Assembly: GCA_016776905.1 (NCBI GenBank)
Contig: JADHSM010000001.1
Span: 180,455-244,454 of the forward strand
Direction of reading: 5' to 3'
DNA from: Planctomycetota bacterium
Lineage (GTDB): Bacteria; Planctomycetota; UBA8108; UBA1146
Length of the DNA: 64,000 bases
Both the position numbers and the translations under genes were made by a program. The notes under the pieces are model-generated. The model worked only from the letters and a program-made list of their open reading frames with translations. It was not told where the DNA came from and searched no databases. Positions 803 to 43,250 of this stretch are shown piece by piece (the first letter of the stretch is position 1; each line of letters opens with the position of its first letter).

Positions 803-884
803 CATGGTTCCACGTTGAGGGGGCAGACGAGTGAGCTCTTTGTTCAGTGAGTTTGTTTTTTAATCCAGAGATTTGGAGTGGCCT

Positions 885-1388
885 GTGGCAGCGCATTTCA
901 AGGGACAGTTTGAACTGACCCTCGACGATAAGGGGAGAGTGATCATCCCTTCTCGTCTGCGTGCCAAGATCGATCCTCGTTGCGACGGTGAGGGATTTGT
1001 TGCCACCGCCGGAACGGCTCCATGTCTCTGGATCTATACGACCGCCGAATGGGATCGGATCTCAGAAGAGACGCGAAAGTACGCCCGAGGATCTGCGGAA
1101 CTGCATGAACTTCAGCGTTATCTCTTCGGAATGGCAGAAGACTTGAACCCGGATCGACAGGGACGGGTGTTGATAGGGAATCGTCTTCGCAACTGGGCCC
1201 AGCTCGATAAGGAAGTGGTCTTCGTCGGTTGCTTCGACAGGATCGAGATCTGGGATGCTGCCGTATGGAATGAACGTAATGAAGATCGCGAGGCTTACCA
1301 AAATCGATTGGATGCCTTCCGTGACGAACACGGTGACTACGCAAGAAGAATGGATCAGTACTTCGGTGGAACTTCCACCGACGTTTGA
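885..1388 (+). CDS. mraZ: Transcriptional regulator MraZ
   Basis: N-terminus AAHFKGQFELTLDDKGRVIIP matches the MraZ hallmark (FxGxxxxxLDxKGRxxxP). First gene of a dcw-type cluster. The ORF track starts at TTG 873; a GTG at 885 gives the canonical N-terminus. Confidence 0.8.
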   Translation: MAAHFKGQFELTLDDKGRVIIPSRLRAKIDPRCDGEGFVATAGTAPCLWIYTTAEWDRISEETRKYARGSAELHELQRYLFGMAEDLNPDRQGRVLIGNRLRNWAQLDKEVVFVGCFDRIEIWDAAVWNERNEDREAYQNRLDAFRDEHGDYARRMDQYFGGTSTDV

Positions 1389-1446
1389 CTGGGGAAGGGT
1401 TGACGAGGGGGAATCGTCAACCAAGGAAAAAAGATGGGGGACAGAG

Positions 1447-1710
1447 ATGATTTCGTTGTTAGATCAACATGTAGATTCGAATCAGAGACAATCGCAGGCC
1501 GTGAGTAGAATCAGGGACTTCCTTTTATCGGGACAGTACCTCGACGAAGCTCCTGATTCCGTATTACGGGATTTAGATCTGCTCTGGGAGCGTATTCAGC
1601 ACGCTCGTGATAATGGTGCAGACGGTGTCCGTCTGTCGAAGAATTTGCACAGGGCAGCCCGTGCACGTGCACTCGGAAAGTTCATCGCACCGACCCTCGA
1701 TCACGTTTGA
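1447..1710 (+). CDS. Small hypothetical protein (87 aa) inserted between mraZ and rsmH
   Basis: ATG at 1447 (MISLLDQHVD...) with a G-rich stretch upstream. The frame exactly fills the mraZ-rsmH gap (stop 1710, rsmH ATG 1724). No recognisable motif. The 5' part of the track ORF 1255-1710 overlaps mraZ and is discounted. Confidence 0.3.
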   Translation: MISLLDQHVDSNQRQSQAVSRIRDFLLSGQYLDEAPDSVLRDLDLLWERIQHARDNGADGVRLSKNLHRAARARALGKFIAPTLDHV

Positions 1711-1723
1711 ATCGTTCGGTCAT

Positions 1724-2614
1724 ATGGCGGGACACGTTCCAGTACTCCTAGAGGAGGTCTTGCAAGGCTTGGCCCCTCTACCCGGAGAAAACTTACTCGA
1801 TCTCACCCTGGGCAGGGGTGGGCACGCACTGGAGATTCTGAAGCTTACCGCTCCTCAGGGTCAATTAGTGGGTGTCGATCGTGATCCCGTTGCATTGGAA
1901 GAGACTGCCACTCGGCTTCCTGCCGAGAGAGTCTTGTTGATTCAAGGTGACTTTGGGCGAATTCCACAGTTGCGAGAGAAGATGGGTTCGGGGACATGGG
2001 ATCTCGTCCTCGCTGATTTGGGAGTCTCTTCACCTCAGATAGACGTGGGTGAAAGAGGATTTTCATTTCGATACGACGGCCCTCTCGATATGAGGATGGA
2101 CCCCACTGAAGGGGAAACAGCAGCGGAATATATTGCAAGGATCGACGAGGCAGGACTTGCCAAAATCATCCACGAATATGGAGAAGATCGTCATTCTCGC
2201 CGTATTGCTTCAGCCATCGTTCAAGAGAGACGTCGTGGAGCGATAGAGACGACAGCTCACCTGGCGAAAATAATTGAAGACCACATGCCGCGATCTCGAG
2301 ATCAGCATCTACATCCCGCGACGCGTACCTTTCAGGCGTTACGTATCGAAGTCAATCGTGAAATGACAGCGCTTCAGCACTTACTTGATCGGACTGGAAA
2401 TCTGCTCTCTCCGGGAGGGCGAATGGCGGTGTTGAGTTACCACTCTCTGGAAGATCGAAAAGTGAAGCAGGTATTCAAGGATCTTATCAAAGAGGGAGAC
2501 CATGAATTAGTGACGACGCGACCTGTTCGCCCAGGTGACGGCGAGTTGCGGAAGAATCCTCGATCTCGATCTGCACGACTCAGGATATTACGCAGGAAAG
2601 GGTCGTCAGAATGA
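1724..2614 (+). CDS. rsmH: 16S rRNA (cytosine1402-N4)-methyltransferase RsmH
   Basis: MAGHVPVLLEEVL...DLTLGRGGHA is the typical RsmH N-terminus and SAM motif. Follows mraZ. Real ATG at 1724 inside the longer track ORF. Confidence 0.9.
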   Translation: MAGHVPVLLEEVLQGLAPLPGENLLDLTLGRGGHALEILKLTAPQGQLVGVDRDPVALEETATRLPAERVLLIQGDFGRIPQLREKMGSGTWDLVLADLGVSSPQIDVGERGFSFRYDGPLDMRMDPTEGETAAEYIARIDEAGLAKIIHEYGEDRHSRRIASAIVQERRRGAIETTAHLAKIIEDHMPRSRDQHLHPATRTFQALRIEVNREMTALQHLLDRTGNLLSPGGRMAVLSYHSLEDRKVKQVFKDLIKEGDHELVTTRPVRPGDGELRKNPRSRSARLRILRRKGSSE

Positions 2615-2892
2615 CAATGAAACGATGGATCCTGATTCTGCTGTTGTTGACGACGGGTACCTTTGCGCTGGTTTGGTGTAAGTCAGATCAGCGAAGGCTG
2701 AAAAGCGAGATTTATAAGAACCAAGCTCTTCTTGTAAGTCTCGATGTGGAGCTCCAAGATTTGCAAATTTTGCAGCAGGGCGAAATCTCTTCACATGTAC
2801 AAAACGGAGCAGAATTGTACGAAAGGCTCGTGGACTTGAAAAATCATGGATTGATAGAGTTCAGTCCCATATTTGCGAATTGGGAAAAATAG
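2611..2892 (+). CDS. ftsL: FtsL-like septum formation protein (bitopic, coiled-coil)
   Basis: 93 aa with an N-terminal transmembrane helix (WILILLLLTTGTFALVW) followed by a coiled-coil-like region. ATGA overlap with the rsmH stop. Sits in the canonical ftsL position between rsmH and ftsI. Confidence 0.5.
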   Translation: MTMKRWILILLLLTTGTFALVWCKSDQRRLKSEIYKNQALLVSLDVELQDLQILQQGEISSHVQNGAELYERLVDLKNHGLIEFSPIFANWEK

Positions 2893-2939
2893 GAGAAGGC
2901 GCACGTCTGGCCCTGAAGTTGCATACCCAGCTGTTGTGA

Positions 2940-5219
2940 ATGAGCACAGCAAAGAGATCTGAAAGCGGTAACACATCCATGACACGAGTTCGTCGTTCTC
3001 CCGCCCAAAAAAAATCGAGCAAACGCCCCTCCAAAATTTCGGACTTCTCTTTGATTCGTGATAATAGAAATATTGTCGGATCCGCGATGTTCATCTGTAT
3101 CCTGCTGGGGTTATGCATCGTCGGTCTTCGTGTGGGGCAAATGCAATTATTGGAACGGGGGATCTGGGAGACTCGTATGGCAAAAGCTCAGAGTCGAAAG
3201 TCCACCGGGAATGAAACTCGCGGAAGCATTTCTGATCGCAATGGAAATTTTCTGGCAGTGGATGTGCCGTTTTTTATTGTCGGCATCGATCCCCTTGGGC
3301 TCTCCAAGAATTGCGCGTCAGATTTCGAAGTGAATCCATTGCTCGTCAAAAAGGAATCTAAGAGAGCCGTGTCTTCCGACGAGTTTTCGAAAGAAATCGC
3401 CATCGACGAGTTTCTAGATATGTTATTGGATTGTGGTCTCCAGCTCGATAATTCTTTGGAGGATACTCTCCTCTCTCTCAAAGCGAGTCTCAAATATAAT
3501 CGCAAATTGAGTCGAGATGCGGGAATCGAAACGGATTCCAAAACGGATTCCAAAACGGATTCCAAAACGGATTCCAAAACGGATTCTAAAACGGATTCTA
3601 AAACGGATTCCGAAACGGATTCCGAAACAAAGACTAGTCCTATTCAATATTTACGTTTGGGAATACTGAGGAGCGTCGCAGAGAAGAATCGATTCGAAGC
3701 ACTCGAGAGGGCACTGACAAAAGATTTTTTGAAGCGGAATGTTTTCCCGAGGTTTGTCACACGATTCGAACGGCTATATCCATATGAAGATTCCCTTCAA
3801 CTACTCTTAGGTGAGATGAGAGGGAAGACAAATGATGGAAATACGGGACTAGAGAATGACAATAATGCAGTATTGAAAAGTCAGAAGACACTTTCAAAGC
3901 AACGCACTGATAGTCGCGGACGTCCGTTAGAAGATCCCACGACGTTGATCCCAGGCTATTCAGGCCAGGACCTTATTCTTTCCATCGACATCTTGTTACA
4001 GAAGGAAGTCGAGCACCTTTGTCTCCAGAATATGCGGAGAACTTCCGCCAAAAGTGTGAGTGCCTTGGTTCTGGATCCATTCACTGGAGAAATCTTTTCT
4101 TGGGTCACTGTTCCAGCACTCGCGAGAGGTGAGAGAACGAGAATCCGCAACACGTTCGAGGAGGCTGAAGCGGATCGTCGGATTCGTGAAAAGAGTTCCC
4201 GTTTAGAGCGATTGCCGAAGGCCCCCGGTTCGGTGGTAAAACCATTGATCATGGCCAAAGCCTTGAGCATGGGTCTTCCTCTCACCTTGGCTCTCGATGT
4301 GAAGAGTAAAGATCAATTTATCGCCAATGAAAATAGTAGCCGAGGCCGCGGCCGAATATTTAGGGACAGTTCTCTTTTGAGAGATAAAACCTTGGCCGGC
4401 GCCGTGATCTATTCGAGCAATATCGGGATGGCTGATCTGGGGTTGCATCACATGTCCAAGAAGCAACTGGCTGAAGGCTTGGAGATGTTTGGTCTGGGGC
4501 AAAGAACTGGGATCGAGCTGTTCGGTGAAGATCTGGGTTTGCTCAAGCCTGTCGAAGATTGGGATTGGTACACCCGAGGATCCGCATGTTTCGGATACGA
4601 GATGCGGGTGACTCCCATCCAGGTGGCCCGGGCATATATGGCGATTGCAAATGGCGGTTATCTTCTCAATCCCACTTTTATGAAAGACAAAGAAGCGAAC
4701 TCAGTCCCTTTTCTGAATGAAGAGGTGGCTCGTAAAACTCGAACTGTTCTGCGGAGAGTCGTGACGGAAGGAACAGGGAGGCATGTGATTCAGCATGTCG
4801 GCCCCGAATTGGTCGATATCATTCGATCCGGTCGATTGGAAATGGCCGGGAAAACCGGCACTATCAAACTGTTGAATGAAAACAAAGAGTTCTCCACAGA
4901 ACTCTATTCCTCCAGTTTTGTGGGGTTTGCTCCCGTGGAAAATGCTCAATTTCTGACCGTTGTCATGGTGGAAGAACCGACAACGGAGGACCGAATGTAC
5001 TATGCCTCGAAGTCTGCAGCCCCGCTGGGAGCACAGATCTTGGCCTCGGCCATGAATCTGTCCGGTTTTGATCCCTATCAAGTGCGGGTGGAGAAGAAGG
5101 AAGAATCCGAGGCTGGGAACTTGGAGGTGAGCCATGAGGCCGGTAATGTGGCCTTGCGGGAAACCTCGACTGGGAGAGTCGTCGTCGAGGAGCAGGAGGG
5201 GGAACCGGAACAGTGGTAG
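2940..5219 (+). CDS. ftsI: Class B penicillin-binding protein (FtsI/PBP3-type transpeptidase) with an internal KTDS repeat insertion
   Basis: N-terminal transmembrane helix. SxxK motif (GSVVKPLIMAKAL), SxN motif (YSSNIGMA) and KTG motif (AGKTGTIK). Sits in the ftsI position of the dcw cluster. Confidence 0.85.
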   Translation: MSTAKRSESGNTSMTRVRRSPAQKKSSKRPSKISDFSLIRDNRNIVGSAMFICILLGLCIVGLRVGQMQLLERGIWETRMAKAQSRKSTGNETRGSISDRNGNFLAVDVPFFIVGIDPLGLSKNCASDFEVNPLLVKKESKRAVSSDEFSKEIAIDEFLDMLLDCGLQLDNSLEDTLLSLKASLKYNRKLSRDAGIETDSKTDSKTDSKTDSKTDSKTDSKTDSETDSETKTSPIQYLRLGILRSVAEKNRFEALERALTKDFLKRNVFPRFVTRFERLYPYEDSLQLLLGEMRGKTNDGNTGLENDNNAVLKSQKTLSKQRTDSRGRPLEDPTTLIPGYSGQDLILSIDILLQKEVEHLCLQNMRRTSAKSVSALVLDPFTGEIFSWVTVPALARGERTRIRNTFEEAEADRRIREKSSRLERLPKAPGSVVKPLIMAKALSMGLPLTLALDVKSKDQFIANENSSRGRGRIFRDSSLLRDKTLAGAVIYSSNIGMADLGLHHMSKKQLAEGLEMFGLGQRTGIELFGEDLGLLKPVEDWDWYTRGSACFGYEMRVTPIQVARAYMAIANGGYLLNPTFMKDKEANSVPFLNEEVARKTRTVLRRVVTEGTGRHVIQHVGPELVDIIRSGRLEMAGKTGTIKLLNENKEFSTELYSSSFVGFAPVENAQFLTVVMVEEPTTEDRMYYASKSAAPLGAQILASAMNLSGFDPYQVRVEKKEESEAGNLEVSHEAGNVALRETSTGRVVVEEQEGEPEQW
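3528..3623 (+). repeat. Perfect tandem repeat, 8 x 12 bp (g/aaaacggattcc), encoding (KTDS)8 in frame inside ftsI
   Basis: Directly visible in the sequence; only wobble variants (c/t) occur between units. Confidence 0.95.
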
Positions 5220-6676
5220 CAACACAAGGGATACCGTTGCCATCATTGAGCAACGAGGATCTGAATCAGATCCTCGGCGTATCTGTGTTGTCGTGTTCTC
5301 AAAAGTTCCGATTCAAGTCTATGGCATGGGACAGTCGTCAATCCGCTGGCGATCTGTTTGTTGCGATTAATGGCATCTCCTTTGACGGTCATCAGCTGAT
5401 CAAAGAGAAGATAGCAGCGGGTGCTCAAGGCATCGTCGCAGAGATTGAACCTCCGCAGGATCTTCCAAAGAATATCAGTTGGTGGCACGTTCAGGATTCT
5501 CGAAAAGAACTGGCTCATTTATCCCATGAGGCTTATGGATCTCCTGCGAGCAAACTTCAGGTCTATGGCGTCACGGGAACGAATGGCAAAAGTAGCACCG
5601 TGCGTTGGCTTGCATCTATTCTTCAATCTGCTGGATTGAAAACCGGGTGGATGACAACCGTGGATCGATGTGTCGCTTCAGAAATCTCGCAGAGTTCTTG
5701 CACCACCGCTCCGGCGACAGAGTTAGCAGAAGCTTTGAATCGTCATCACAAATCGGGGGGGCAAGCGATGGTCTTGGAGGTCTCTTCTCACGCGATTCAT
5801 CAGAGTCGCGTCGCAGGGATCTCATGGGAGGCGGCTGGCGTCACCCAGTTGGGGCGAGATCATCTCGACTATCACAAAACTGTGGACGCTTACCATCGGG
5901 TCAAACTGGGGCTGCAATCCAGTTGTAAGACAGATGGGGCTTTCCTTGTTCCTGTTGAAGGAGAAAGTGATTCTTATGAATCCGCTTTTGAGGACAGACT
6001 CGGAAATAACAGATGGACAGCTCAGGTCGAGGAACGAAACCTGAAGGTGACTCATGCTGTTCTGTCGGGCCCCGGCGTTTCATTGAAAGTGGCACTTCCT
6101 CGACCCGGAAAACACGATCTTTCAAATGCACTTTGCGCTGCCGCCATGGCCTATTCTTCGGGGATTTCAAAGGAAGCGATTCAGAAAGGGCTGGAAACAG
6201 GGGAGTTGGTAGAGGGGCGTATGGAGCAGATCTCTCCGGGGATTTTCGTAGATTACGCTCATACGCCAGATGCACTACAGGCGGTACTGACCACATGCCG
6301 TGATCTTTGCACCGGTTCCCTCAGAGTTGTTTTTGGTTGCGGAGGAGATAGGGATCGAGGCAAGAGGCCCGAGATGGGGCGCGTCGCTGATGAAGCGGCG
6401 GATGTCATCTATCTCACGGATGACAATCCCCGTTCTGAAAACCCATCGGCCATCATTGAGGACATCGTCTCTGGAGTCAGGGACAGAGATTCGATCCGAA
6501 TCAGTTCTGATCGAAGGTCTGCGATTGAAACCGCACTCTCTGATTATCGCCAGGGAGATATTCTGGTCATCGCAGGAAAAGGACATGAGAAAACTCAGGA
6601 AGTAGATGGAGTGTTCTCTCCCTTTAGTGATTCCGAGGTCATCTTAGAATGCCTCGGACAGGATGGTCTGGCATGA
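5213..6676 (+). CDS. murE: UDP-N-acetylmuramoyl-L-alanyl-D-glutamate--2,6-diaminopimelate ligase MurE
   Basis: P-loop GVTGTNGKSST. DNPR motif (LTDDNPRSENP), diagnostic of meso-DAP-adding MurE. GTG start overlaps the ftsI stop; an alternative ATG lies at 5321. Confidence 0.9.
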   Translation: MVATQGIPLPSLSNEDLNQILGVSVLSCSQKFRFKSMAWDSRQSAGDLFVAINGISFDGHQLIKEKIAAGAQGIVAEIEPPQDLPKNISWWHVQDSRKELAHLSHEAYGSPASKLQVYGVTGTNGKSSTVRWLASILQSAGLKTGWMTTVDRCVASEISQSSCTTAPATELAEALNRHHKSGGQAMVLEVSSHAIHQSRVAGISWEAAGVTQLGRDHLDYHKTVDAYHRVKLGLQSSCKTDGAFLVPVEGESDSYESAFEDRLGNNRWTAQVEERNLKVTHAVLSGPGVSLKVALPRPGKHDLSNALCAAAMAYSSGISKEAIQKGLETGELVEGRMEQISPGIFVDYAHTPDALQAVLTTCRDLCTGSLRVVFGCGGDRDRGKRPEMGRVADEAADVIYLTDDNPRSENPSAIIEDIVSGVRDRDSIRISSDRRSAIETALSDYRQGDILVIAGKGHEKTQEVDGVFSPFSDSEVILECLGQDGLA

Positions 6677-8133
6677 AAAAACGCTCTATTCAAGAAGTGC
6701 TGAGGCTCTTGTCGAAGCCGATAGAGATACGCCCCGGAGTGACTTCAAGAGTCGAATGTCAGCCGCTGCGTATCGTCGATGATTTCGCGGTGACCGGGGC
6801 AGCACTCGATAGCCGCCACATTCAGTCCGGGTTTATATTTGCTGCATTCCAAGGTGAGAACTGTCATGGACTGGATCATGTTGAAAGTGCATGGAAATCT
6901 GGAGCATCGGTGGTTCTGACAGAGATCGGAGCTGGAGCCCGAGTGAAAGGGCCCACTCTAGAGGTTCCAAATGTAAAAGAGGCACTGGTTCATCTCGCCA
7001 CGGCCGTGCGAAATGAAGATCGATCCTCAGCTTCCTCTGGATTAAAGACGGTGGCAGTGACGGGGAGTGTTGGAAAAACGACAACCTGTCATGTGGGTTC
7101 TCTTTTGTGTGACTCCCACTTTCAGGTCCATTCGCCTCGTAATTCCTTCAATAACTTGCTGGGTGTTCCGATCACAATTTTAGAGGCGGCAGAAAGTACG
7201 AATTGTCTTTGGTTAGAGATGGGAACCAACAGCCACGGCGAAATTGCTCAACTTGTTGATATCGGGCAACCCGATATAGGAGTAGTGACGGCAGTGGGTG
7301 CGACTCACCTCGAAGGACTGGGATCGGTGGAAGGTGTCTTCAGGGAAAAGTTTTCACTTTTCGACGTGGAGTCTCTTCAGTGGGGCATCGCTCCCGTCGA
7401 ATTTCGAGATGAACGTCTCGAAACCCTCAACGGCGCCCACAGCGGCACCGATTTTATTTGGACGGGGCCGGGAGGGGATCTTGAAATCCAAAACGATTCC
7501 TCCCACGAAATCACCGTCATTGATCGCAGATCAGATCAGAAATTCCCAATAGAAACTTCGATGACCGGATACGGATTCCTTCGCTGCCTAGAATCTTCCA
7601 TTGCGGTAGCTCTGCAACTGGGTATCTCTGCTTCAGACATTCAGCAAGTGGCATCGTCATTGACTCTCCCTCCTATGAGGGCAGAAGTTCACGACGTCAA
7701 AGGCATCCAATTAATTCTAGATTGTTATAACGCTTCACCTCCTTCAGTTCGTGGAGCGATTGGCGACTTGGCGCAATCGGTGGGCGGACGAAGAATCGCC
7801 GTATTGGGAACGATGGAAGAATTGGGTCCAGAGGAAAAACGATACCACCAAGAGATGGGGAGAGCGTGTGTCGAAGAAGGACTCGATTTCGTCGTGGCTT
7901 GGGGAAGAGCCGCGGATTGGATTACGGAGGGGGTGACCTCCGCTGGAGGCACCTGTGAGTCTCCTTCTGACCTAGAATCGGCTCTATCCTTCCTTTCCTC
8001 GGAGTTGAAGGTGGGAGACCGGGTACTGTTTAAAGCTTCCCGAAAAGAAAAACTGGAATTGATGGCTCAGCAGCTCAAAGCGAGATGGCTGACCGTGACC
8101 ACTGAATCAAGGTCGGGGGAGGCCCGTCAATGA
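6673..8133 (+). CDS. murF: UDP-N-acetylmuramoyl-tripeptide--D-alanyl-D-alanine ligase MurF
   Basis: P-loop VAVTGSVGKTTT and Mur ligase architecture. ATGA overlap with the murE stop at 6673-6676. The track ORF starts 24 nt upstream at 6649. Confidence 0.85.
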   Translation: MKKRSIQEVLRLLSKPIEIRPGVTSRVECQPLRIVDDFAVTGAALDSRHIQSGFIFAAFQGENCHGLDHVESAWKSGASVVLTEIGAGARVKGPTLEVPNVKEALVHLATAVRNEDRSSASSGLKTVAVTGSVGKTTTCHVGSLLCDSHFQVHSPRNSFNNLLGVPITILEAAESTNCLWLEMGTNSHGEIAQLVDIGQPDIGVVTAVGATHLEGLGSVEGVFREKFSLFDVESLQWGIAPVEFRDERLETLNGAHSGTDFIWTGPGGDLEIQNDSSHEITVIDRRSDQKFPIETSMTGYGFLRCLESSIAVALQLGISASDIQQVASSLTLPPMRAEVHDVKGIQLILDCYNASPPSVRGAIGDLAQSVGGRRIAVLGTMEELGPEEKRYHQEMGRACVEEGLDFVVAWGRAADWITEGVTSAGGTCESPSDLESALSFLSSELKVGDRVLFKASRKEKLELMAQQLKARWLTVTTESRSGEARQ

Positions 8134-9290
8134 CGACTCCTGTCGCCGAGATGTCCACCATGAGATTTGACCCTGCGGATCAGCAAAAAAAATTGCTCTT
8201 TACCCTCATCTCTTTGGTGCTCCTTGGAAGCATCACTTTGTTCAGTGCGACCAGTTATCGATCGGTCCTTGTCTCTCCTGACGATAACCCGTTGTGGATG
8301 TGGCAGGATCAGTTAAAGGGTTATGGTCTGGGGGCCTTGTTTTTCTGGGTGGGATATCAAGTTCGTCCTCGACGTTGGATCTCTAAAGGTCTGATTATTC
8401 CCGCGTTGTTTGCGCTGATTTTGTTTCTTTTGGCGACTAAATTTACGCCAATGGGTATTGGAATCAATGATGCCTATCGCTGGCTTCAATTCGGCCCCGT
8501 CCGTTTTCAGCCTTCTGAGTTAGCGAAAGTGATTGTGCCGGCTTTCATGATTTACGTGACGGGGACTTGGAAAATGAATTCTCGTTTGAGCCTCAAAAAA
8601 CTGCACTTCACAGGATTTGGACTGCTCTTGGTTGGGGGATTACTCCCTATGGGATTGATCTTCATCCAGCCTGATTGGGGCACCACTATTGTCGTTGGAG
8701 CATTGGCGACATTGACGGTGCCTCGCTGGCCTCGCATTTATGTATATGCCACGGTGGTGTTGATACCGGCTGCTTTGAGCTTGCTCTACCTGGGTAGAGG
8801 TCGTCTTCCCGAAATCAAGGAAAGACTGAGTGCCCCGTTTGATCCCGAGTCAGTTCCACAGGTTTGGACTTCTCTCCAAGCGGTGGGATCTGGAGGATTG
8901 ATGGGAAAAGGATTGGGAGAAGGAATGTCCAAAATGGGGCATCTTCCATCGTCCTACAATGATTTCATTTTTGCAGTGTATGCGGAAGAGACGGGATTCT
9001 TCGGTGTATGCCTTCTGTTGGGACTCTTTTCCTTATTGTTGCACGCAGGTTGGCGAGTGGCGAATTCCTTGGAAGATGAAGATCTCTCTTGCTTGGCTCT
9101 GGTTTTAACTTTCGCCATCACGGGTCAGGCACTGATCAATTTGGGTGTAAATGTCGCGCTGCTCCCTACAAAAGGAATCGCATTACCCTTCTTTTCCCAC
9201 GGATCGACCGGCTTGGCGGTATTCCTAGGTATGTGCGGGATTCTATTCTCTTTGACCCGTTGTCGGGGCAGGGAGGTATTGATCTCATGA
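8130..9290 (+). CDS. ftsW: SEDS-family peptidoglycan glycosyltransferase FtsW/RodA-like
   Basis: Polytopic membrane protein of about 10 transmembrane helices with typical SEDS sequence. ATGA overlap with the murF stop. Note that mraY and murD, which normally lie between murF and ftsW, are absent here. Confidence 0.8.
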   Translation: MTTPVAEMSTMRFDPADQQKKLLFTLISLVLLGSITLFSATSYRSVLVSPDDNPLWMWQDQLKGYGLGALFFWVGYQVRPRRWISKGLIIPALFALILFLLATKFTPMGIGINDAYRWLQFGPVRFQPSELAKVIVPAFMIYVTGTWKMNSRLSLKKLHFTGFGLLLVGGLLPMGLIFIQPDWGTTIVVGALATLTVPRWPRIYVYATVVLIPAALSLLYLGRGRLPEIKERLSAPFDPESVPQVWTSLQAVGSGGLMGKGLGEGMSKMGHLPSSYNDFIFAVYAEETGFFGVCLLLGLFSLLLHAGWRVANSLEDEDLSCLALVLTFAITGQALINLGVNVALLPTKGIALPFFSHGSTGLAVFLGMCGILFSLTRCRGREVLIS

Positions 9291-10411
9291 ATCGAAGAAT
9301 CCTATTTGTTGGAGGTCATACCGGAGGGCATCTTTTTCCAGCGGAAGCTCTCGCTCACTCTATTCTTGAAATGGGTGAAGGAACTCCCGTGCTTCTCGAC
9401 CATGGTCGGGATCAGGAAAAGAAAGTGTTCCAGAAGGCGGGAATGGAGAAAGTTCTCGCACCATGGAGAGGTAAAGGTCGCCTCTCTAGTGCGACAAAAG
9501 TCTTTGCAGCAAGGAAACTGTTACGCGAAGAAAAGATCGACGCCGTGATTTGTATGGGAGCATTTCCCTGTATCGCTCCGGGCTTAGCCGCCGCGACTCT
9601 AAGGAAACCTCTTTTTCTTCTGGAGCAAAACCGTGTGATGGGGAAAGCGAATCGTATTCTTTCTCTTTTCGCGTCGAAGATTTTTCTATCGATGCCCTTA
9701 TTGAAATCGAGTCGGTCTATCCGTGCTCGTTCTGCAATTCTGGGCTGCCCAGTCCGTGACGAATTTCAACCAGCAGGGCTTCCAGAAGAACCTCTTCGTC
9801 TTGTTGTGATGGGGGGGAGTCAAGGCGCTCGTGAAGTGAATCAAAAAGTATTAGAAATTTTTGGCCACGGCGTAGCTCCTCATGGAACTTCGTTGGACAT
9901 TCTTCATCAGATCGGTCCTAGAGAAGCATTGGAGCCCATCGTCGACTCCTGGGCGAAATTAGGGATTCCGGCAAGGGTTGTGCCGTTTATTCAGAATCCT
10001 GCCCGAGCGATGCGTGATGCACACTTTGTGATGGGAAGAGCGGGTGGTTCCACTTTGGCGGAACTGAACTCTGTTGGAAGACCATCGTTACTGTTCCCAT
10101 TGAGATCTCATTCTGATCAGCATCAGTTACACAATGCTCGTTATCTTGAAGATCACGGATCTGCACTGGTTTTTGATGGACAGAACGCGGCATTTCTAGC
10201 GGATCAACTGCGTCAGCTACTCGGTAGGCCGGACCGTTTGTGCTCCATGGTAAAAAGTGCACAGGCGTTGGGATCATCCGATGCGTCGAAGCGAATTGCG
10301 GAAATGATCGGAGTTCTTCTCCGTTGTCGTGAAACAGGGCGAATGAGAGTTCCTCATGTTTCTGGAGAAAATAGCATTCATCCAGCTCCTGGAAAAGTGA
10401 AGGAGGCCTGA
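9287..10411 (+). CDS. murG: UDP-GlcNAc--MurNAc-pentapeptide-undecaprenol GlcNAc transferase MurG
   Basis: N-terminal ILFVGGHTGGHLFPAEALA is the MurG G-loop, with GT-B C-terminal motifs. ATGA overlap with the ftsW stop. The track ORF is extended upstream in frame. Confidence 0.85.
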   Translation: MNRRILFVGGHTGGHLFPAEALAHSILEMGEGTPVLLDHGRDQEKKVFQKAGMEKVLAPWRGKGRLSSATKVFAARKLLREEKIDAVICMGAFPCIAPGLAAATLRKPLFLLEQNRVMGKANRILSLFASKIFLSMPLLKSSRSIRARSAILGCPVRDEFQPAGLPEEPLRLVVMGGSQGAREVNQKVLEIFGHGVAPHGTSLDILHQIGPREALEPIVDSWAKLGIPARVVPFIQNPARAMRDAHFVMGRAGGSTLAELNSVGRPSLLFPLRSHSDQHQLHNARYLEDHGSALVFDGQNAAFLADQLRQLLGRPDRLCSMVKSAQALGSSDASKRIAEMIGVLLRCRETGRMRVPHVSGENSIHPAPGKVKEA

Positions 10412-11109
10412 TGCATATGTTTCGCTGGGTCCTCTGCGTTTTCATCTTATTCGCGGGTGTTTTTTCATTTAATGGTTGGTGGGATTCTCGTGACGTCATC
10501 ACTTTTGAGCCTCAGGATGTTCTCGCTGTCTCCGAGGTTCAAATGGACTGGCATTCATTGTACTTGCCAAAAACAGACCCCTCAGGAGTGAATCCCCAAT
10601 TGAGAAGTAGTGGCAGAAATGCTGAGATATTGGAATCGGCTGAGAACCGAACGATACCCCAGAGAATCTCTGTTGAGACGGGGCTATCGGAAGAAGGGGG
10701 CAATTCGTCGAATCCCTCCTCCGAGTCTGCTATTCCGGAAACCTATACCATTCGATCAGGTGATACGTTAAGTGAAGTCGCGGAAAGATTTTTTGGCGCG
10801 TGGAGTCGGGGCCAAAAAGAGATTGAGCGATTGAACCCAAAAATTAATGTAAATCGTATCAAGGTCGGACAAGTTCTGATCTTGAGAGGATCTTCTCGAT
10901 TATCGAATCAGGAAGAGAATGAATCTTCCAATAAAATCTCCATAGATAATCAGTTATTAGTTCATCGTGTAAAGAATGGTGAAAGCTTAGCTGCTATTGC
11001 AGTCCGCTATTACGGAAATGAAAATTGGGAGAAGATTCATAAAGCGAACCTGAATATCTTACCTAACCCAAATCGACTGAAAGTCGGCATGGAACTTGTG
11101 ATTCCCTAA
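10411..11109 (+). CDS. Membrane-anchored protein with two LysM peptidoglycan-binding domains
   Basis: N-terminal transmembrane helix. Two LysM-like segments (YTIRSGDTLSEVAERFFG...IKVGQVLIL and HRVKNGESLAAIAVRYYG...LKVGMELVIP). AGGAGG ribosome-binding site at 10401-10406. Confidence 0.7.
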   Translation: MHMFRWVLCVFILFAGVFSFNGWWDSRDVITFEPQDVLAVSEVQMDWHSLYLPKTDPSGVNPQLRSSGRNAEILESAENRTIPQRISVETGLSEEGGNSSNPSSESAIPETYTIRSGDTLSEVAERFFGAWSRGQKEIERLNPKINVNRIKVGQVLILRGSSRLSNQEENESSNKISIDNQLLVHRVKNGESLAAIAVRYYGNENWEKIHKANLNILPNPNRLKVGMELVIP

Positions 11110-11137
11110 TGGTGATATCTAGAGAGTTGTTTCAGGA

Positions 11138-12544
11138 ATGGATCCTTTTTTGAGTGCTGTAAGTGGCGCAACGAATGATCACTCTGCAGTCCACATCGTG
11201 GGTATTGGAGGCAGTGCCACTCGTGGTATGGCAAGTCTGCTTCAATGTCAGGGGGTTCGAGTTTCTGGAAGTGACCAAGACGAGGCCATGAGGGAGTGGT
11301 TTAGTGAAAAAGGAATCGCTTTTCACTGTGATCATGACGCAGGAAATATTCCAGCTGAAGTGACCGCTGTCGTGCATTCGCGCGCGGTGGGTGAGGACAA
11401 TCCCGAAATCATTGAAGCTCAACGCCGAGGTATTCCTATTTATGCTTATAGTGAGTATTTGGGGCGCTTAGGAATCGGAAAGAACACGATAGCAGTATCC
11501 GGTACACATGGGAAAACATCGACAACCGCACTTTTACTGAGCGTTTTTCTTGAAGCGGATCAAGATCCCTCTCTCATCGCTGGCGGTGACATTCAGCAGT
11601 TAGAGGCTGGCTGGCGGCATGGAGAAGGAGATCACTTTCTCGTCGAGGCTTGTGAGTTCCAAAGAGCATTTCTCGATATCAAACCTGAAGCAGCCATCAT
11701 TACAAATATTGATCTCGATCATCCCGAAATTTACAGTAACAGATCCGAGGTTGTGGAAACATTCCGGGATTTCATCTCCGGATTCCCTCAGCAGTCGGTG
11801 GTGGTTTGTTCTCCCGAAATTCGTTCTGAATTGGGAGGAAGGGAAGATCTGCGTTGGGTGACATGTGGCCGAACTGAAGATTGTGATGTTCGAATCATTC
11901 ATGAGAGTGGTCAGGCGTATTCCACTGTTGAATGGAAACTTGAGAAGAGTGCCCAGCTCAAAGCGACACTTCAAGTCCCAGGGGATCACTCGGTAGAGAA
12001 TGCGACTAAAGTTGTCGCTCTCTGTCATGCTCTCGGAATTAGTCCTGAGCATATTCAGTCAGGATTGGAAAAATTCCAAGGTGTGGCCCGCAGGTTCGAA
12101 TCCAGAGAGGTTCTTCAAGGGACACATTGGATTGAGGATTACGCTCACCATCCTCAAGAGGTTGAGGCGACTCTTAGAACTGCTCAGTCCCTCTTCCGTG
12201 AAAATAAGATACATGCACTCTTTCAGCCTCATCAGGCAGGAAGACTCAGCGCATTCATGGATGGTTTTTCGAATTCCTTCCAGGGGATGGATGAAGTTTT
12301 CCTGTTACCGATTTATTCAGTCAGGGAGAACATTTCTGATTTCCCTGAGGATCTATTGGATCAATTACGAGCGAAAATTGAAGAGCAGGGTGTTCACTGT
12401 AAGATTCTTGACTTTGATACTGCTCCTGGTTTTCTTGCTGAAACATTGAGTGAAGGCGACGTTCTCGTTTCCTTAGGGGCGGGAAACGTAGATCAAATTG
12501 GAACTCGCACTCGTGAGATCGCGAGAGGGGTGATCCCATCTTGA
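11138..12544 (+). CDS. murC: UDP-N-acetylmuramate--L-alanine ligase MurC
   Basis: N-terminal IHIVGIGGSATRGMA and P-loop VSGTHGKTSTTALL. Position after murG. Confidence 0.9.
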   Translation: MDPFLSAVSGATNDHSAVHIVGIGGSATRGMASLLQCQGVRVSGSDQDEAMREWFSEKGIAFHCDHDAGNIPAEVTAVVHSRAVGEDNPEIIEAQRRGIPIYAYSEYLGRLGIGKNTIAVSGTHGKTSTTALLLSVFLEADQDPSLIAGGDIQQLEAGWRHGEGDHFLVEACEFQRAFLDIKPEAAIITNIDLDHPEIYSNRSEVVETFRDFISGFPQQSVVVCSPEIRSELGGREDLRWVTCGRTEDCDVRIIHESGQAYSTVEWKLEKSAQLKATLQVPGDHSVENATKVVALCHALGISPEHIQSGLEKFQGVARRFESREVLQGTHWIEDYAHHPQEVEATLRTAQSLFRENKIHALFQPHQAGRLSAFMDGFSNSFQGMDEVFLLPIYSVRENISDFPEDLLDQLRAKIEEQGVHCKILDFDTAPGFLAETLSEGDVLVSLGAGNVDQIGTRTREIARGVIPS

Positions 12545-12576
12545 AGCGACCCGAGGGAATAAAAACTGACATAGAG

Positions 12577-13452
12577 ATGAAGCAATACTCTTGGTTCAGA
12601 AGTGGGGGGCTGTCTCGATATTTTTCGAGACCCAAATCGATCGCAGAAATGATCGATGTGATTCGATGGGCACGATCGGAATCGCATGAGATTTCCCTAT
12701 TGGGTCTCGGTGCGAACATGTTGTTTCCCGACGAATATTTCGATGGTCTCGTTCTTCAAACAACCAAGCTCAAATCAACCATGCTCAAATCAAATGAGAA
12801 TTTCCAGTTTTTCAATGAATCTGAAATTGATGTTTCCGCAGGAGTTCAACTGGAGCGATTAGTGAACAGTTTAAATTCTCAGGGTTTAGCAGGATTGGAG
12901 AATCTTGCTGGAATCCCTGGGACAATTGGGGGATCTGTTTGGGGGAATGCCGGAGCAGGTCATGGTTCGATCTCGGAACAAGTGGTCGCAGTTCAGTGTA
13001 TCGACTCTAACTGTGAACTCCGTTGGATTTCGGCAGATGAGTTTGAATGGAGTTACAGGTACTCAGGTATCGGTGACCACATTATTTGTGCAGTTCGATT
13101 CCGTGTTGAACCGAACTCAGACCCCGTGAGATTGCAGGAAAGTAGTCGAGACCTGAAGGCATACAAGGAGAGTGTTCAGCCTTATGAGCAAAAATCGACA
13201 GGCTGTATTTTCCGAAACCCTGAATCGGGACCTGGAGCGGGTCAATTGATCGATAACGCAGGTCTTAAGGGTTGGACTGTTGGAGGAGCGAAAATCTCAG
13301 AGCTCCATGGGAATTTCATCGTCAATGAATCGAATGCGACCACAGCAGATGTTCTGGAACTTGTTCATACCATCGAAGAGAAGATTTTTTCGCAAACAGG
13401 TATCCGATTAGATCGTGAAGTCATTTTGGCATGCCAGGAGAAGTCGCGATGA
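12577..13452 (+). CDS. murB: UDP-N-acetylenolpyruvoylglucosamine reductase MurB
   Basis: FAD-binding-type N-terminus (FRSGGLSRYF...LGLGANMLF) and MurB C-terminal domain. The track ORF begins at TTG 12541, overlapping the murC stop; ATG 12577 gives the usual length. Confidence 0.85.
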   Translation: MKQYSWFRSGGLSRYFSRPKSIAEMIDVIRWARSESHEISLLGLGANMLFPDEYFDGLVLQTTKLKSTMLKSNENFQFFNESEIDVSAGVQLERLVNSLNSQGLAGLENLAGIPGTIGGSVWGNAGAGHGSISEQVVAVQCIDSNCELRWISADEFEWSYRYSGIGDHIICAVRFRVEPNSDPVRLQESSRDLKAYKESVQPYEQKSTGCIFRNPESGPGAGQLIDNAGLKGWTVGGAKISELHGNFIVNESNATTADVLELVHTIEEKIFSQTGIRLDREVILACQEKSR

Positions 13453-14288
13453 ACCAGCACTCAGAGGTCTCTCCCCCCTGGTTTCGATTCTTGTTTGCGA
13501 TCTTCCTGTTTGTGGGGGCGGGATTATTCATTTCTCACGCCAAGAATACTATCGATGACCAACAATTGAGAGCTCGGGGTGATTGGCAAATCGATCAAAA
13601 GAGTTTTCCAAGTTGGCTTCCTGAAAGTAAAACGCCGCAGTTCCGGGATCTGAATTTGATTCCTTCAAGAATCCAGCATGATAGTGTTCGTTGGAAAGAT
13701 CAGGTTCAGCAAGAGTTGCTCGGCAACCCTTGGATAGTGGCGGTCGATTCGATATCTCGCACGGGAACCCAAATTAGTTTTCATGCAAAAATTCAGAGAC
13801 CTTTAGTCGGTGTGGTCATTCCGGGAGGGCATCTCCTTGTGAATTCCAATGGCGGAGTGATTGAGTTTATCCGTGGTGATTTTCTGGATTCGAACTGGGG
13901 AATCCCTGAATTCATGCCATCTCGGGTTGGGGTGTTATCGGAAGAGTCGACGGAACTTCCGGAAGAATCTGAGTATCAACAATTACGATTACTCCTCCAG
14001 ACTCTTGAAAAAGGCGAAATCCTGAGGAGGTTTCCCCAATTTATTCGAGATATCCAACGCTTGCCTATGGAAGGTGGGGATCTATGGATTCTTGTTTGTA
14101 CAGGTGGGTTAAGGCTTCTCTGGGGACGTGTTCCCACTGCTGAGGTGGTGATGGCGTCCTCTCTGGGGGATAAATTGGCGGCTCTGGAGTACGTGATTGG
14201 GAAATCTCAGGAACTGATCGAGATCTCCCCAGGCATCGAGCGCATCAGCCTCTGTGAGGGCCCGGTTCCCTTTATTAAGATGCGCTGA
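13449..14288 (+). CDS. FtsQ/DivIB-like bitopic protein (candidate)
   Basis: Short cytoplasmic N-terminus, a single transmembrane helix (WFRFLFAIFLFVGAGLFI) and a roughly 230-aa extracytoplasmic domain. ATGA overlap with the murB stop. It occupies the ftsQ position; similarity to POTRA is assumed from position and topology only. Confidence 0.4.
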   Translation: MNQHSEVSPPWFRFLFAIFLFVGAGLFISHAKNTIDDQQLRARGDWQIDQKSFPSWLPESKTPQFRDLNLIPSRIQHDSVRWKDQVQQELLGNPWIVAVDSISRTGTQISFHAKIQRPLVGVVIPGGHLLVNSNGGVIEFIRGDFLDSNWGIPEFMPSRVGVLSEESTELPEESEYQQLRLLLQTLEKGEILRRFPQFIRDIQRLPMEGGDLWILVCTGGLRLLWGRVPTAEVVMASSLGDKLAALEYVIGKSQELIEISPGIERISLCEGPVPFIKMR

Positions 14289-14365: not shown

Positions 14366-14704
14366 GTGGGTTGTCAGCAATCGAATGGATTTCTGAAACC
14401 CTCTCAGGATTTCAGCAACTCGACAGGAGTTAGGGTGGCCTCAAAGGATAGGTACCGGCGATTGATCGGAGAAGTGGCTCAGGAAATGGGTTTTGTGGAG
14501 GCAGATGCCATCCAGGAAGCGCTTTCACTGCAAAACCAACTTCGTTCAGAGGGCCGTAAGGTTCCATTGCTGGGACAGCTTCTGGTGGAGTTGAACCATC
14601 TCACTACGGATCAATTGCAGCAATTGATCGAGATCATCTACCCCGTGGAGGATGCGGATTCTCCACCTTCGGCGGAGACCCCAGAGGCAAGTGAGGAAGA
14701 CTGA
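14366..14704 (+). CDS. Small protein with two MshEN-like (cyclic-di-GMP-binding-type) motifs
   Basis: RLIGEVAQEMGFVEADAIQEALSLQ and LLGQLLVELNHLTTDQLQQLIEI both resemble the RLGxx(L/V/I)(L/V/I)xxG(L/V/I)(L/V/I)xxxxLxxxLxxQ motif of the MshEN/T2SE N-terminal domain. The stop overlaps the start of the next gene (TGATG). Confidence 0.35.
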   Translation: MGCQQSNGFLKPSQDFSNSTGVRVASKDRYRRLIGEVAQEMGFVEADAIQEALSLQNQLRSEGRKVPLLGQLLVELNHLTTDQLQQLIEIIYPVEDADSPPSAETPEASEED

Positions 14705-16791
14705 TGTCAGATGAAGGAAAAAAGAAACGGCGAGTCCCGGCACCTCGAAAAAAAGGTGTGGCTCCAGAAGGGCAAGCCAAAAAGGTCCCCCCAAGGAGAA
14801 TAGCACCCGGAAAAGCATCCGGAGCAGATCCCGTAGCAGCAGGAAAAGCAGGAGCTTCCCAGAACCCCGTCACTCCTGAAGGCGGCTCTCCGCAAGCGGC
14901 AGCACAGCAAGCGGCAGCAGCACAGCAAGCGGCAGCACAGCAATCCGCGGCAAAGCAAGCGGCAGCAAAGCAAGCGGCAGCAAAGCAAGCGGCGGCAAAG
15001 CAAGCGGCGGCAAAGCAAGCGGCGGCACAGCAAGCGGCAGCACAGCAAGCGGCGGCAAAGCAAGCGGCGGCAAAGCAAGCGGCGGCACAGCAAGCGGCGG
15101 CAAAGCAAGCGGCATTACAGAAGGCTGCAGCGGTGCAACAGGCGGCAGCCAAGCAAGAGGCCCTAAAACGAGCGGCAGGTCAACAAGCGGCAGGTCAACA
15201 AGCGGCAGGTCAACAAGCCGCTCCGACCGGAAAAGCCACTGGCAGAGCACCCGGAAAAACACCCGGAAAAACACCCGCAAAAGCATCTGGGAAAGCACCA
15301 TCGCGAGCAACCCGATCAGGTCGAGCTCCTGCCAGAGGAGCTTCTTCAGATCGAACTCAGCCCCGAAAGATGGCGAAGACTGGAAGACGTCAACCGGTGA
15401 AGGGGCCCTTGGCAGATGGAGATGAAGACGTCGCCGAGCAGTCGAAATCATTGCCGCTCATATTAGGTGGAGTCGGAGTCGTTCTTGTCATCGCAGTCAT
15501 CGGATTCCTGATGAGTGGGGGCGATACTCCAGTGGAGCCTGTCGTCAAGAAGGTTGCGAAGGCGCCAGTAAAGAGTCAGAAGGAAATTCGTGAAGAGAGG
15601 GCTCGTAAAGCTCTGGACCGTGCCGAGAAAGAAAATGCTGCAGAGCCCGGCGAGAGATTTAGGTGTGCTGCAAGGTTGAGAAGTGTGGCCATGGAATACT
15701 CCAATACCACTGCAGGTGCAGAAGCTGGAGAATTGCGTTCGACTCTCCTGAATACATGGCGTACCGAAGTCGATGGCGCATGGAACTCTCTCAGATCCGA
15801 TGTATTGCTGGCATTCAGCGAGGCACGATTTGAACAGGCGAGTCGCCTTCTTGAAGAATTGCCGCCAGTATTCCTGGGGGCTTCTCAGGTGCTCGAGGGG
15901 AAATTTGAACAAGAAATCGTTCTGTTGAAGAAGGATGCCAAAGCTCAATTACTCTTCAAGAAACAGCTAGATGAACTCTCTACTAAAGCCGGATTCTATG
16001 CACGAAAAGGCTACGAGGATATCGCCTTGGCAGTCATCGAGGCTCTTCCTGAAAAGGTTCAGGAAGATGCTCCAGACGTATGGCGTCTCAAAGAGGAGTT
16101 GATCCAGAAAATCCAGCGAGAAGGGCTCACTCTTCTTATGGAGCAAGAGTCTGCACTCGAAGCAGAAATAGCCGAAGCAAGACGTCTGGAAAAGGAACGT
16201 AAAGCGGCTGAAAGAATTCGTCGCTGGCTGGATATGAGAGACTCTGTGGCGTGGAAACCTCTGTTGGGGAAATCCAATCTGTATAACTGGGTTGCCTCCA
16301 GTGACAGAATGAGAGACATGCAGGGAGAAAGAACCTTGTGGCGCGTGATGGAGAGAAATGGTGAGGGAGTCCTTCTGATCGATAACCGTTCAGGGAGCGA
16401 TTCATACACCGGTGTCTATAGCAATCACTGGGAAGATTACCTCCTAGAGTTTGAGTTGAATCTCAAGGTGGGGGCACTTCGTATCTCACCTCGAACTCAG
16501 GCGGATGCGCAACGGGGAGCGATCACTGATGGGACTTCTCCACCTTTGGAGTTGGGAGACGATTTCCCTAAAAACCGCTGGCTGAAAGTGACTCTCGAAG
16601 TCCATGGGAAATCGGTGACACTTCGCTATGGAGATGGGGGAGACAAAATTGAGCTCGACCCTGAAACCACGCGATTGCCCAGCAGTGGTGGATTTGTTTT
16701 CTACGCAGCAGATGGAACTCGCCTCGAGATCAGGGGTGTGCGAGTGAAGATTGTCAATGACACTCGCGAGGGTGGTATCTTCGCCAAGTAA
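14704..16791 (+). CDS. Bitopic membrane protein with an Ala/Gln/Lys-repeat basic cytoplasmic tail, coiled coil and a C-terminal beta-rich domain (function unknown)
   Basis: 695 aa. Basic N-terminus (KKKRRVPAPRKK), about 45 x (AAAKQ/AAAQQ) repeats, a transmembrane helix (LPLILGGVGVVLVIAVIGFLM), a coiled-coil region and a roughly 150-aa C-terminal domain. Last gene of the dcw block, followed by a strong terminator. Confidence 0.6.
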   Translation: MSDEGKKKRRVPAPRKKGVAPEGQAKKVPPRRIAPGKASGADPVAAGKAGASQNPVTPEGGSPQAAAQQAAAAQQAAAQQSAAKQAAAKQAAAKQAAAKQAAAKQAAAQQAAAQQAAAKQAAAKQAAAQQAAAKQAALQKAAAVQQAAAKQEALKRAAGQQAAGQQAAGQQAAPTGKATGRAPGKTPGKTPAKASGKAPSRATRSGRAPARGASSDRTQPRKMAKTGRRQPVKGPLADGDEDVAEQSKSLPLILGGVGVVLVIAVIGFLMSGGDTPVEPVVKKVAKAPVKSQKEIREERARKALDRAEKENAAEPGERFRCAARLRSVAMEYSNTTAGAEAGELRSTLLNTWRTEVDGAWNSLRSDVLLAFSEARFEQASRLLEELPPVFLGASQVLEGKFEQEIVLLKKDAKAQLLFKKQLDELSTKAGFYARKGYEDIALAVIEALPEKVQEDAPDVWRLKEELIQKIQREGLTLLMEQESALEAEIAEARRLEKERKAAERIRRWLDMRDSVAWKPLLGKSNLYNWVASSDRMRDMQGERTLWRVMERNGEGVLLIDNRSGSDSYTGVYSNHWEDYLLEFELNLKVGALRISPRTQADAQRGAITDGTSPPLELGDDFPKNRWLKVTLEVHGKSVTLRYGDGGDKIELDPETTRLPSSGGFVFYAADGTRLEIRGVRVKIVNDTREGGIFAK
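14893..15225 (+). repeat. 15-bp tandem repeat array (caagcggcagcaaag / ...cacag variants, then 3 x caagcggcaggtcaa) encoding (QAAAK/QAAAQ)n and (QAAGQ)3
   Basis: Directly visible; it produces spurious antisense ORFs in the six-frame track. Confidence 0.9.
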
Positions 16792-42265: not shown

Positions 42266-42887
42266 TCTGGAGAGAAAAAAAATGTTGAACTTCATTAAAT
42301 TTTCTCGTTAACATACTTACAGAACGAGAGAGGAACCATTTCGGAAGGGGAAATCCGGAGGTGCCTTGAACACAGAAATGAAGTCGTGGGGGAAATCTTT
42401 AGCTCACCTTTTCTTTGGGTGAGACTGTGAGTGCCCTCCGATTTTATTTTGCGAGATCTCTTTTGGTCATTTCTTCATCGACCAGCCCAGGGGAAGGGTT
42501 GTCTCGACTCCCTCATTTATTGCCCTCATCCTTTCGGCTATTCCAATTCTGGAATGGTAAGAGGAAACTTTCACCTTACCGGGCCGTGAATCGTGATCAT
42601 CCACTCTGGAAATTGAGTGCCACCCAGGTGGCGGGCAGATGATTTCATAAAATTCCATTCCAGTTTTCGAGGTAACAGTTTTCCATCCGTACACCGCGGA
42701 TGATCTAACTGCCATGGAACTTTCAAGTTGTGTCTTGCATCTATAGTCTTTTTTCACGCATACTCTTGGAGATTTCTATCGGCGAGCGGCAGGGCAGTGG
42801 TTGCCCCACTCCGTTCACCGGGCGTCCCCTCGGAGGGGGGCGGGAGCATCAGGATTGAGGGGCATGTCCCCCGATAGGAGTTGGCTC

Positions 42888-43250
42888 ATGGCCAAGAAAA
42901 AGGTAGCGCGTAAGAAAGCAGCCAAGAAAAAGGTTGCTAAGAAAAAGGTAGCTAAGAAAAAGACTGCCAAGAAGAAGGTAGCCAAGAAGAAAGTTGCCAA
43001 GAAGAAGGTAGCTAAGAAGAAGGTTGCCAAGAAGAAGGTAGCTAAGAAGAAAGTTGCCAAGAAGAAGACTGCCAAGAAGAAGGTAGCCAAGAAGAAGGTC
43101 GCCAAGAAGAAGACTGCCAAGAAGAAGGTAGCCAAGAAGAAGGTCGCCAAGAAGAAGGTCGCCAAGAAGAAGGTCGCCAAGAAGAAGACCGCCAAGAAGA
43201 AGGTCGCTAAGAAGGCAGCCAAGAGAAAGACCACGCTTAGAAAAAAGTAA
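42888..43250 (+). CDS. Histone H1-like lysine/alanine-rich basic protein (Hc1/AlgP-type repeat protein)
   Basis: [30 protein letters not shown]..., built almost entirely of (KKVAK)n and encoded by 15-bp tandem repeats. ATG 42888 with AGGAG 8 nt upstream. The track ORF is extended upstream. Confidence 0.6.
42895..43215 (+). repeat. 15-bp tandem repeat array (gccaagaagaaggta and variants, about 21 units) encoding ([10 protein letters not shown])n
   Basis: Directly visible; it creates the antisense artefact ORF 42815-43234. Confidence 0.9.

Follow-up and report, generated by a model that had tools for sequence, protein, structure and literature searches.

A 12-bp in-frame tandem repeat of variable copy number in a class B penicillin-binding protein gene of a marine planctomycete

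The penicillin-binding protein gene and its repeat

The window analysed here, a 64,000-nucleotide stretch of a Planctomycetota bacterium genome (GCA_016776905.1, contig JADHSM010000001.1, positions 180,455 to 244,454 of the forward strand), carries a class B penicillin-binding protein (bPBP) gene with a tandem array of 12-bp units in its coding sequence. The gene (2940..5219, plus strand) was identified from its Pfam domains, its fold and its position in the division and cell wall (dcw) cluster, and encodes 759 amino acids (aa) from the first ATG; public gene calls of the protein begin at M14 or M50, or at M293 where the array is gapped. The Transpeptidase domain (PF00905) spans aa 374-701 (E 3e-42) and the PBP_dimer domain (PF03717) aa 93-331, the latter with 26.2 bits against a cutoff of 24.4. 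The catalytic motifs, located by motif and alignment, are the active-site SxxK (S431-V-V-K434; 4230..4241, plus strand), SxN (S492-S-N494; 4413..4421, plus strand) and KTG (K638-T-G640; 4851..4859, plus strand). An alignment of 27 sequences shows all three to be invariant or almost so, and they lie downstream of the array, as the first-pass annotation of this DNA had stated. A hydrophobic segment, MFICILLGLCIVGLRVGQ (3087..3140, plus strand), within a predicted helix at aa 37-70, is the probable membrane anchor, judging from its hydrophobicity and from bPBP topology, and would therefore leave the array on the periplasmic side. Together, the anchor, the PBP_dimer pedestal and the transpeptidase, with no glycosyltransferase domain, make up the architecture of a class B PBP.

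Eight complete 12-bp units run head to tail from 3528 to 3623 (plus strand) and encode ETDS-(KTDS)6-ETDS (aa 197-228). In 5' to 3' order they are GAAACGGATTCC, three copies of AAAACGGATTCC, two of AAAACGGATTCT, a further AAAACGGATTCC and a closing GAAACGGATTCC. Units 1 and 8 start with G, giving the Glu codon GAA, and units 5 and 6 close with T (TCT, synonymous), which amounts to four substitutions within the array. The locus had been described as a perfect 8 x 12-bp repeat encoding (KTDS)8; the eight head-to-tail units and their coordinates hold, but the repeat is not perfect and the outer units specify Glu, not Lys. A partial ninth unit, GAAACA (3624..3629, plus strand), encodes ET, forms the 3' boundary of the array and matches the second unit of the ancestral proto-repeat described below. 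With it included, the peptide in the frame of the open reading frame (ORF) 2940-5219 reads ETDS-(KTDS)6-ETDS-ET (aa 197-230).

The array is far above chance. Tandem Repeats Finder (TRF) reported 3529-3628 in the window with period 12, 8.3 copies, 96% matches, 0 indels and a score of 172, against a top score of 60 in 60 shuffles of the window, and a two-unit probe gave 7 matches where 0 were expected. Folded as single-stranded DNA, the array showed no more structure than its shuffles (z = 0.23), so that hairpin-promoted instability is unsupported, and the sole Rfam match in the window was a tRNA, with none at the array. Two minus-strand ORFs over the array (3188-3577 and 3423-3647) were considered as genes and rejected as by-products of the repeat, the conserved frame being that of the PBP.

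An AlphaFold2 model of the protein (predicted local distance difference test score, pLDDT, 77.9; predicted template modelling score, pTM, 0.70) was confident over the pedestal and transpeptidase domains, with pLDDT below 50 across aa 195-231, which is the repeat. In the model this segment is flanked by a helix (aa 173-193) and a strand (aa 238-243). The best Foldseek match was Pseudomonas aeruginosa PBP3 (E 1e-37, template modelling score, TM, 0.81), and FtsI of the FtsWIQBL complex was also matched. By sequence alignment, query residues 64-119 correspond to P. aeruginosa 32-87 and query 275-715 to P. aeruginosa 150-560, so that query 120-274 stands in place of P. aeruginosa 88-149. In P. aeruginosa PBP3, residues 80-149 make up the head subdomain of the N-terminal module, a part that shows flexibility in crystals (PMC3025346). 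In the divisome core structure, FtsL meets FtsI at the head base, through FtsI residues 64, 72-78 and 151-156 (PMC7614612). The segment equivalent to residues 80-149, the enlarged head subdomain of the pedestal domain, covers aa ~112-274 in the protein described here (3273..3761, plus strand). GxIxDRxG and RxYP are 183 aa apart, whereas the median spacing in 66 other bPBP representatives is 90 aa; by this measure the head subdomain is about twice the usual size. The repeat is predicted to be a disordered loop within this periplasmic head subdomain and not a linker beside the membrane anchor. Of the earlier description of a disordered linker in the N-terminal non-catalytic region, the disorder is borne out by the model, but the segment is a loop within the folded head of the PBP_dimer domain and not a linker. 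In 150 bPBP representatives and another 26 homologues, no peptide tandem repeat was detected between GxIxDRxG and RxYP, and a literature search on tandem repeats within PBP genes returned nothing relevant; the location is unusual for the bPBP family, although the kind of element is well known.

The surrounding genes (window 873-13452) are, in order, mraZ, an 87-aa ORF, rsmH, a 93-aa ORF, the PBP gene, murE, murF, ftsW, murG, a LysM protein gene, murC and murB. The 93-aa ORF (2611..2892, plus strand) occupies the ftsL position and has no family match. Since the PBP gene lies between this ORF and murE, and since ftsW (8130..9290, plus strand; SEDS family), encoding the likely partner glycosyltransferase, belongs to the same cluster, the gene fills the ftsI slot of the dcw cluster. 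Among the ORFs scanned in this interval none was recognised as mraY, murD, ftsQ, ftsA or ftsZ, and a 285-aa ORF at 13431-14288 had no family match. No family model passed its cutoff for the PBP: the NCBIfam FtsI model NF011685 scored 116 bits against 737 and the MrdA model TIGR03423 138 against 455. The label ftsI, used in the first-pass annotation, is therefore apt as a position but as a name reflects synteny and fold, not a family score, and a role in septal or division-site peptidoglycan synthesis is putative. The family is isolated, with only four clusters above 38% identity in a library of 1.84 billion representatives, and the nearest database proteins carry the names of Planctomycetota or Planctomycetia metagenome-assembled genomes (MAGs) and come from marine metagenomes. 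An exact look-up of the full-length protein of the window, made from four start codons, found it absent from a collection of 15 billion proteins; only the C-terminal 467 aa are present there, because gapped contigs are called from M293.

Copy number among near-identical loci

We compared the window with 30 public loci whose flanks are 99-100% identical to it, with 0-1 mismatches over 1579 bp downstream. One locus came from a scan of genome contigs and three from a scan of metagenome contigs, and most were retrieved through exact-protein look-ups of neighbouring genes. Over these near-identical loci the array comprises 3, 5, 10, 11, at least 16 or at least 17 units. With units written E or K after their first residue, and Kt where a K unit closes with T, the most often read allele was E-K-E (3 units), found in 15 contigs that included MEGAHIT (k127/k141) and SPAdes assemblies and one contig with a long-read-style name; a second three-unit allele is E-K-K. 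Five units occur as E-K-K-E-E (L032, MEGAHIT k119), and at least five as E-K4 (L026). The longer arrays are E-K3-Kt-Kt-K-E-E-E (10 units, L028), E-K5-Kt-Kt-K-E-E (11 units, L025), an 11-unit array with E and K units interspersed on a contig with a long-read-style name and 2.8x coverage (L030, ena:ERZ26695902:ctg127919_2.80x_l), and arrays of at least 16 (L031) and at least 17 units (L027, NCBI GCA_014382255.1). The locus thus shows what is expected of a coding in-frame variable-number tandem repeat (VNTR), namely near-identical head-to-tail units, a copy number that differs among close genomes and a unit length divisible by 3. That copy number is polymorphic is itself secure.

Both main flank haplotypes (WSRE+ and NRD) carry short as well as long arrays, and the length has therefore changed recurrently. 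Unit variation over all alleles is restricted to two positions, base 1 (A/G) and base 12 (C/T), which argues for a young array of recent origin. More distant relatives carry a degenerate motif of two units, ETKS-ETNK at 97% aa identity, ETNS-ETNN at 96% and ETNS-NTDF at 93%, and homologues at 46% identity have nothing at the repeat site. From these sequences the array appears to have expanded from a two-unit proto-repeat and to change much faster than point substitutions. The comparison with relatives proposed in the first-pass annotation thus returned two-unit proto-repeats in place of the array, and a copy number that is not uniform.

All uninterrupted (ungapped) alleles except one are in frame, as anticipated from the 12-bp unit, and the ORF is unbroken with 3, 5, 10, 11, at least 16 or at least 17 units, in agreement with the earlier proposal that copy number varies between strains without inactivating the PBP. 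The exception, L030, has a 1-bp deletion in array unit 3 (AAAACG-ATTCC), the loss of one base in a GG run, which breaks the gene into two calls, of 209 and 467 aa. This frameshift is most simply an error, and at 2.8x coverage an error and a real null allele are indistinguishable.

The array also proved to be a place where assemblies break. Ten loci (L002-L008, L023, L027 and L031) have a run of N in or at the array, which is exactly 100 N long in nine cases and 43 N long in L027, and two contigs terminate inside the array. The 100-N runs we take to be conventional gaps of unknown size (INSDC/AGP convention); our literature search found no usable source for SPAdes writing 100 N at unresolved tandem repeats. 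In the gapped contigs the PBP is mostly called from M293 as a 467-aa product (e.g. MBC8261170.1, 'hypothetical protein'), so that these truncated calls are due to repeat-induced gaps and not to mutations.

With a 12-bp unit, a de Bruijn graph forms a loop once the periodic stretch reaches k+12, and a single pass through the loop emits k to k+11 bases. The longest perfectly periodic stretch in the intact long arrays measures 58 bp in the window, 58 bp in L028, 59 bp in L026 and 82 bp in L025, and the stretches that run up to a gap or to the end of a contig are 55, 67 or 107 bp long. The unit structure allows no smaller value than 58 or 59 from 55 upwards, than 82 from 77 upwards or than 107 from 99 upwards. 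A 58-bp run is the minimum expected for k=55 on one loop pass, and the 8 units of the window are therefore probably an assembler-limited lower bound. A parallel exists in a comparison of SPAdes assemblies with Sanger sizing, in which VNTR counts were right-censored at the number of units fitting within one k-mer (PMC6905556). The possibility of an assembly collapse had been raised beforehand, and the N gaps, the contig ends in the array and the k-matched periodic runs make it likely. In the alleles of 3 and 5 units, no periodic stretch exceeds 40 bp, which is under every k used, and these alleles are therefore not collapse products.

Further repeats occur elsewhere in the window. A 15-bp in-frame array of 14.6 copies (14892-15113), encoding QAAA[K/Q], lies in the ORF 14704-16791 (plus strand, 695 aa, weak histone-H1-like match), which also contains smaller AAGQQ and PGKT arrays at 15167-15218 and 15227-15299. 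In a MAG contig of 99.9% identity (JACNKB010000028.1) the 14892-15113 array has 4 units (60 bp) fewer, and so represents a second VNTR. Another 15-bp in-frame array, of 19.6 copies (42921-43214), specifies the (AKKKV)n stretch of a small protein rich in lysine (ORF ~42747-43247, plus strand) with a weak, below-cutoff match to the histone H1-like model NF038053. Two 15-bp in-frame arrays (26739-26807 and 26968-27026; 4.6 and 3.9 copies, 97-98% matches) lie in a minus-strand ORF (26589-28130) of the PP-loop ATPase family. With several in-frame arrays whose units are of 12 or 15 bp, this genome seems prone to tandem repeats in coding sequence. Outside the genes, intergenic direct repeats at 43465-43534 and 44436-44812, with periods that are not multiples of three, lie beside tRNA-Leu(aag) (44826-44910, minus strand); four copies of CCGTTTACCCAGATAT stand just past the 3' end of the tRNA gene, and a triplet of TTTATGCACAG type follows a terminator-like hairpin among these repeats.

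Variable flanks and the origin of the polymorphism

Sequence variation is concentrated around the array. Outside the array, the gene has 18 segregating sites among 29 near-identical loci and the window, and 10 of the 18 fall in a hypervariable patch at 3461..3659 (plus strand), within ~98 non-repeat bases. The patch sites comprise E174D, D175N, L178H, K185E, Y186H, Y186C, T232I and S233R, plus 2 synonymous changes, and the variants H178, E185 and H186 are states found in more distant relatives. A 12-bp indel polymorphism lies at 3504..3505 (plus strand), 23 bp upstream of the array: many alleles (L002, L012 and others) carry GTGGAGTCGCGA, which adds WSRE, a diverged tandem duplicate of LSRD, and the window is without the insert. 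The flank haplotype of the window (NRK-LSRD ... KTSP) was found in none of the 30 loci. This ~200-bp segment is a hot spot, for which the data do not separate relaxed constraint with repeat-associated mutation, recombination and selection.

We propose that the array is a young in-frame VNTR, a 12-bp minisatellite in a tolerated disordered loop, nearly neutral and with a window count that is probably a lower bound, and we put the probability of this explanation at about 80%. The VNTR would have grown from a pre-existing degenerate motif of two units, of the ETNS-NTDF or ETKS-ETNK kind. The likeliest route by which whole units would then have been gained and lost is slippage during replication or unequal recombination among units, a mechanism suggested only by the whole-unit differences among alleles. 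Because the unit length is a multiple of three, each such change would alter only the length of the solvent-exposed (K/E)TDS loop and spare the transpeptidase. We regard the loop as probably tolerated and not functional, and the polymorphism as near neutral. Planctomycetia are without FtsZ, and in Planctopirus limnophila ftsI is deletable without a growth phenotype (PMC6952346). This deletability, the intact catalytic domain and the other in-frame arrays of the genome, one of them variable, are consistent with a VNTR in a tolerated loop.

Several observations weigh against this explanation. The density of single-nucleotide polymorphisms by the array is 29-fold that of the rest of the gene (odds ratio 29, Fisher p = 7e-10), and about 175 other bPBP representatives have no tandem repeat at the site; the clustering and this absence could mean more than neutral drift. 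The 8 units of the window would be real if its assembly came from long reads or from k >= 67. In addition, slippage, neutrality and a collapsed count in the window are steps that we infer.

The concentration of variants is also an argument for an adaptive origin, in which loop length and the adjacent helix residues would form a hypervariable surface patch under diversifying or balancing selection. The agents could be the tuning of a contact between the head and a divisome partner, or evasion of an antagonist that acts in the periplasm and binds PBPs. Such selection would fit the nonsynonymous nature of 8 of the 10 patch sites, the neighbouring 12-bp indel, the occurrence of short and long arrays on both flank haplotypes and the lack of a comparable repeat in other bPBPs, as well as the contact of residues at the head base with FtsL in the FtsWIQBL structure (PMC7614612). 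However, a positive-selection test on the flanking patch gave a nonsynonymous to synonymous ratio of 8:2, with no departure from the neutral expectation (p = 0.53), and H178, E185 and H186 may stem from ancestral polymorphism that was retained or from imports by recombination. Moreover, the FtsL-contact residues of P. aeruginosa FtsI lie at the edges of the head whereas the array maps to its distal part, few external selective agents reach a loop in the periplasm, and a model planctomycete can do without ftsI. We therefore consider an adaptive patch unlikely. A more specific version, doubtful to a somewhat greater degree, would join the array, the helix at aa 174-186 and the 12-bp indel into one selected patch on the distal head that modulates or escapes a periplasmic partner in an FtsZ-less planctomycete. 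Candidates for such a partner are a divisome regulator specific to the lineage and an antagonist, for instance a toxin or phage protein that targets the PBP. If true, it would be a first case of VNTR-driven, population-level diversification of a core cell-wall synthase.

Instability of the repeat might instead switch the PBP on and off, as in a contingency (phase-variation) locus, the sense in which the first-pass annotation had spoken of a contingency repeat. The split gene of L030 and the tolerated loss of ftsI in P. limnophila would suit such a switch. Gain or loss of a 12-bp unit cannot shift the frame, however, and no allele turns the gene on or off through unit changes, those of 3 to 11 units keeping the frame, as do all uninterrupted alleles but that of L030. 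The lone frameshift is a one-base loss at low coverage, the 467-aa public calls stem from N gaps, and the product is a periplasmic peptidoglycan transpeptidase and not a surface or host-interaction structure, all of which make phase variation very improbable and lead us to abandon the contingency description. Least credible is the idea that the array is purely an assembly artefact or an ancient fixed linker without real variation, for which the N gaps, the contig ends and the k-dependent lengths of the intact long arrays could be cited, but more than 30 independent assemblies, produced by different assemblers, contain the repeat, the alleles of 3 and 5 units, whose runs do not exceed 40 bp, hold unit junctions incompatible with the long alleles, and relatives are without the array.

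If the near-neutral VNTR is accepted, a core peptidoglycan synthase is able to carry a fast-changing disordered loop in the head subdomain of its pedestal. Such a loop would fit a relaxed role of FtsI in planctomycetes and would mark this part of the protein as tolerant of insertions. The locus could serve as a strain marker for this marine planctomycete lineage. In practical terms, short-read metagenome assembly fails reproducibly at the array, where N gaps, contig ends and copy numbers that track k recur, and copy numbers taken from such assemblies, the window included, are best treated as lower bounds.

Comparison with known systems

In-frame coding VNTRs are a familiar class in bacteria, to which the X-region of spa and the serine-aspartate (SD) repeats of clf in Staphylococcus aureus belong. 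Like the loci used for multiple-locus VNTR analysis of Vibrio cholerae (PMC6905556), the array described here has head-to-tail units of a multiple of three, near-identical copies and a strain-variable count, its product is of low complexity, the ORF is kept and the short-read count is censored at the k-mer limit. It differs in its host, a class B PBP of an uncultured marine planctomycete and not a surface adhesin or typing marker, and in its placement inside a folded subdomain and not in a stalk or spacer.

The host protein resembles FtsI/PBP3 of P. aeruginosa and Escherichia coli (PDB 4kqq, 8bh1) in its anchor, its pedestal, its SxxK/SxN/KTG transpeptidase and its fold (TM 0.81), and its gene, like ftsI, is placed between an ORF at the ftsL position and murE, not far from ftsW. 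Unlike these proteins, with which identity is ~22%, it has a head about twice as long (183 aa against a median of 90) that bears the repeat loop.

With the contingency loci of Neisseria and Haemophilus, the array shares mutable tandem repeats in or beside a gene and the population heterogeneity that these produce. In those loci, units of 1-7 bp shift the reading frame or the promoter spacing and turn surface structures on or off, whereas here the unit is of 12 bp and only the length of a loop changes.

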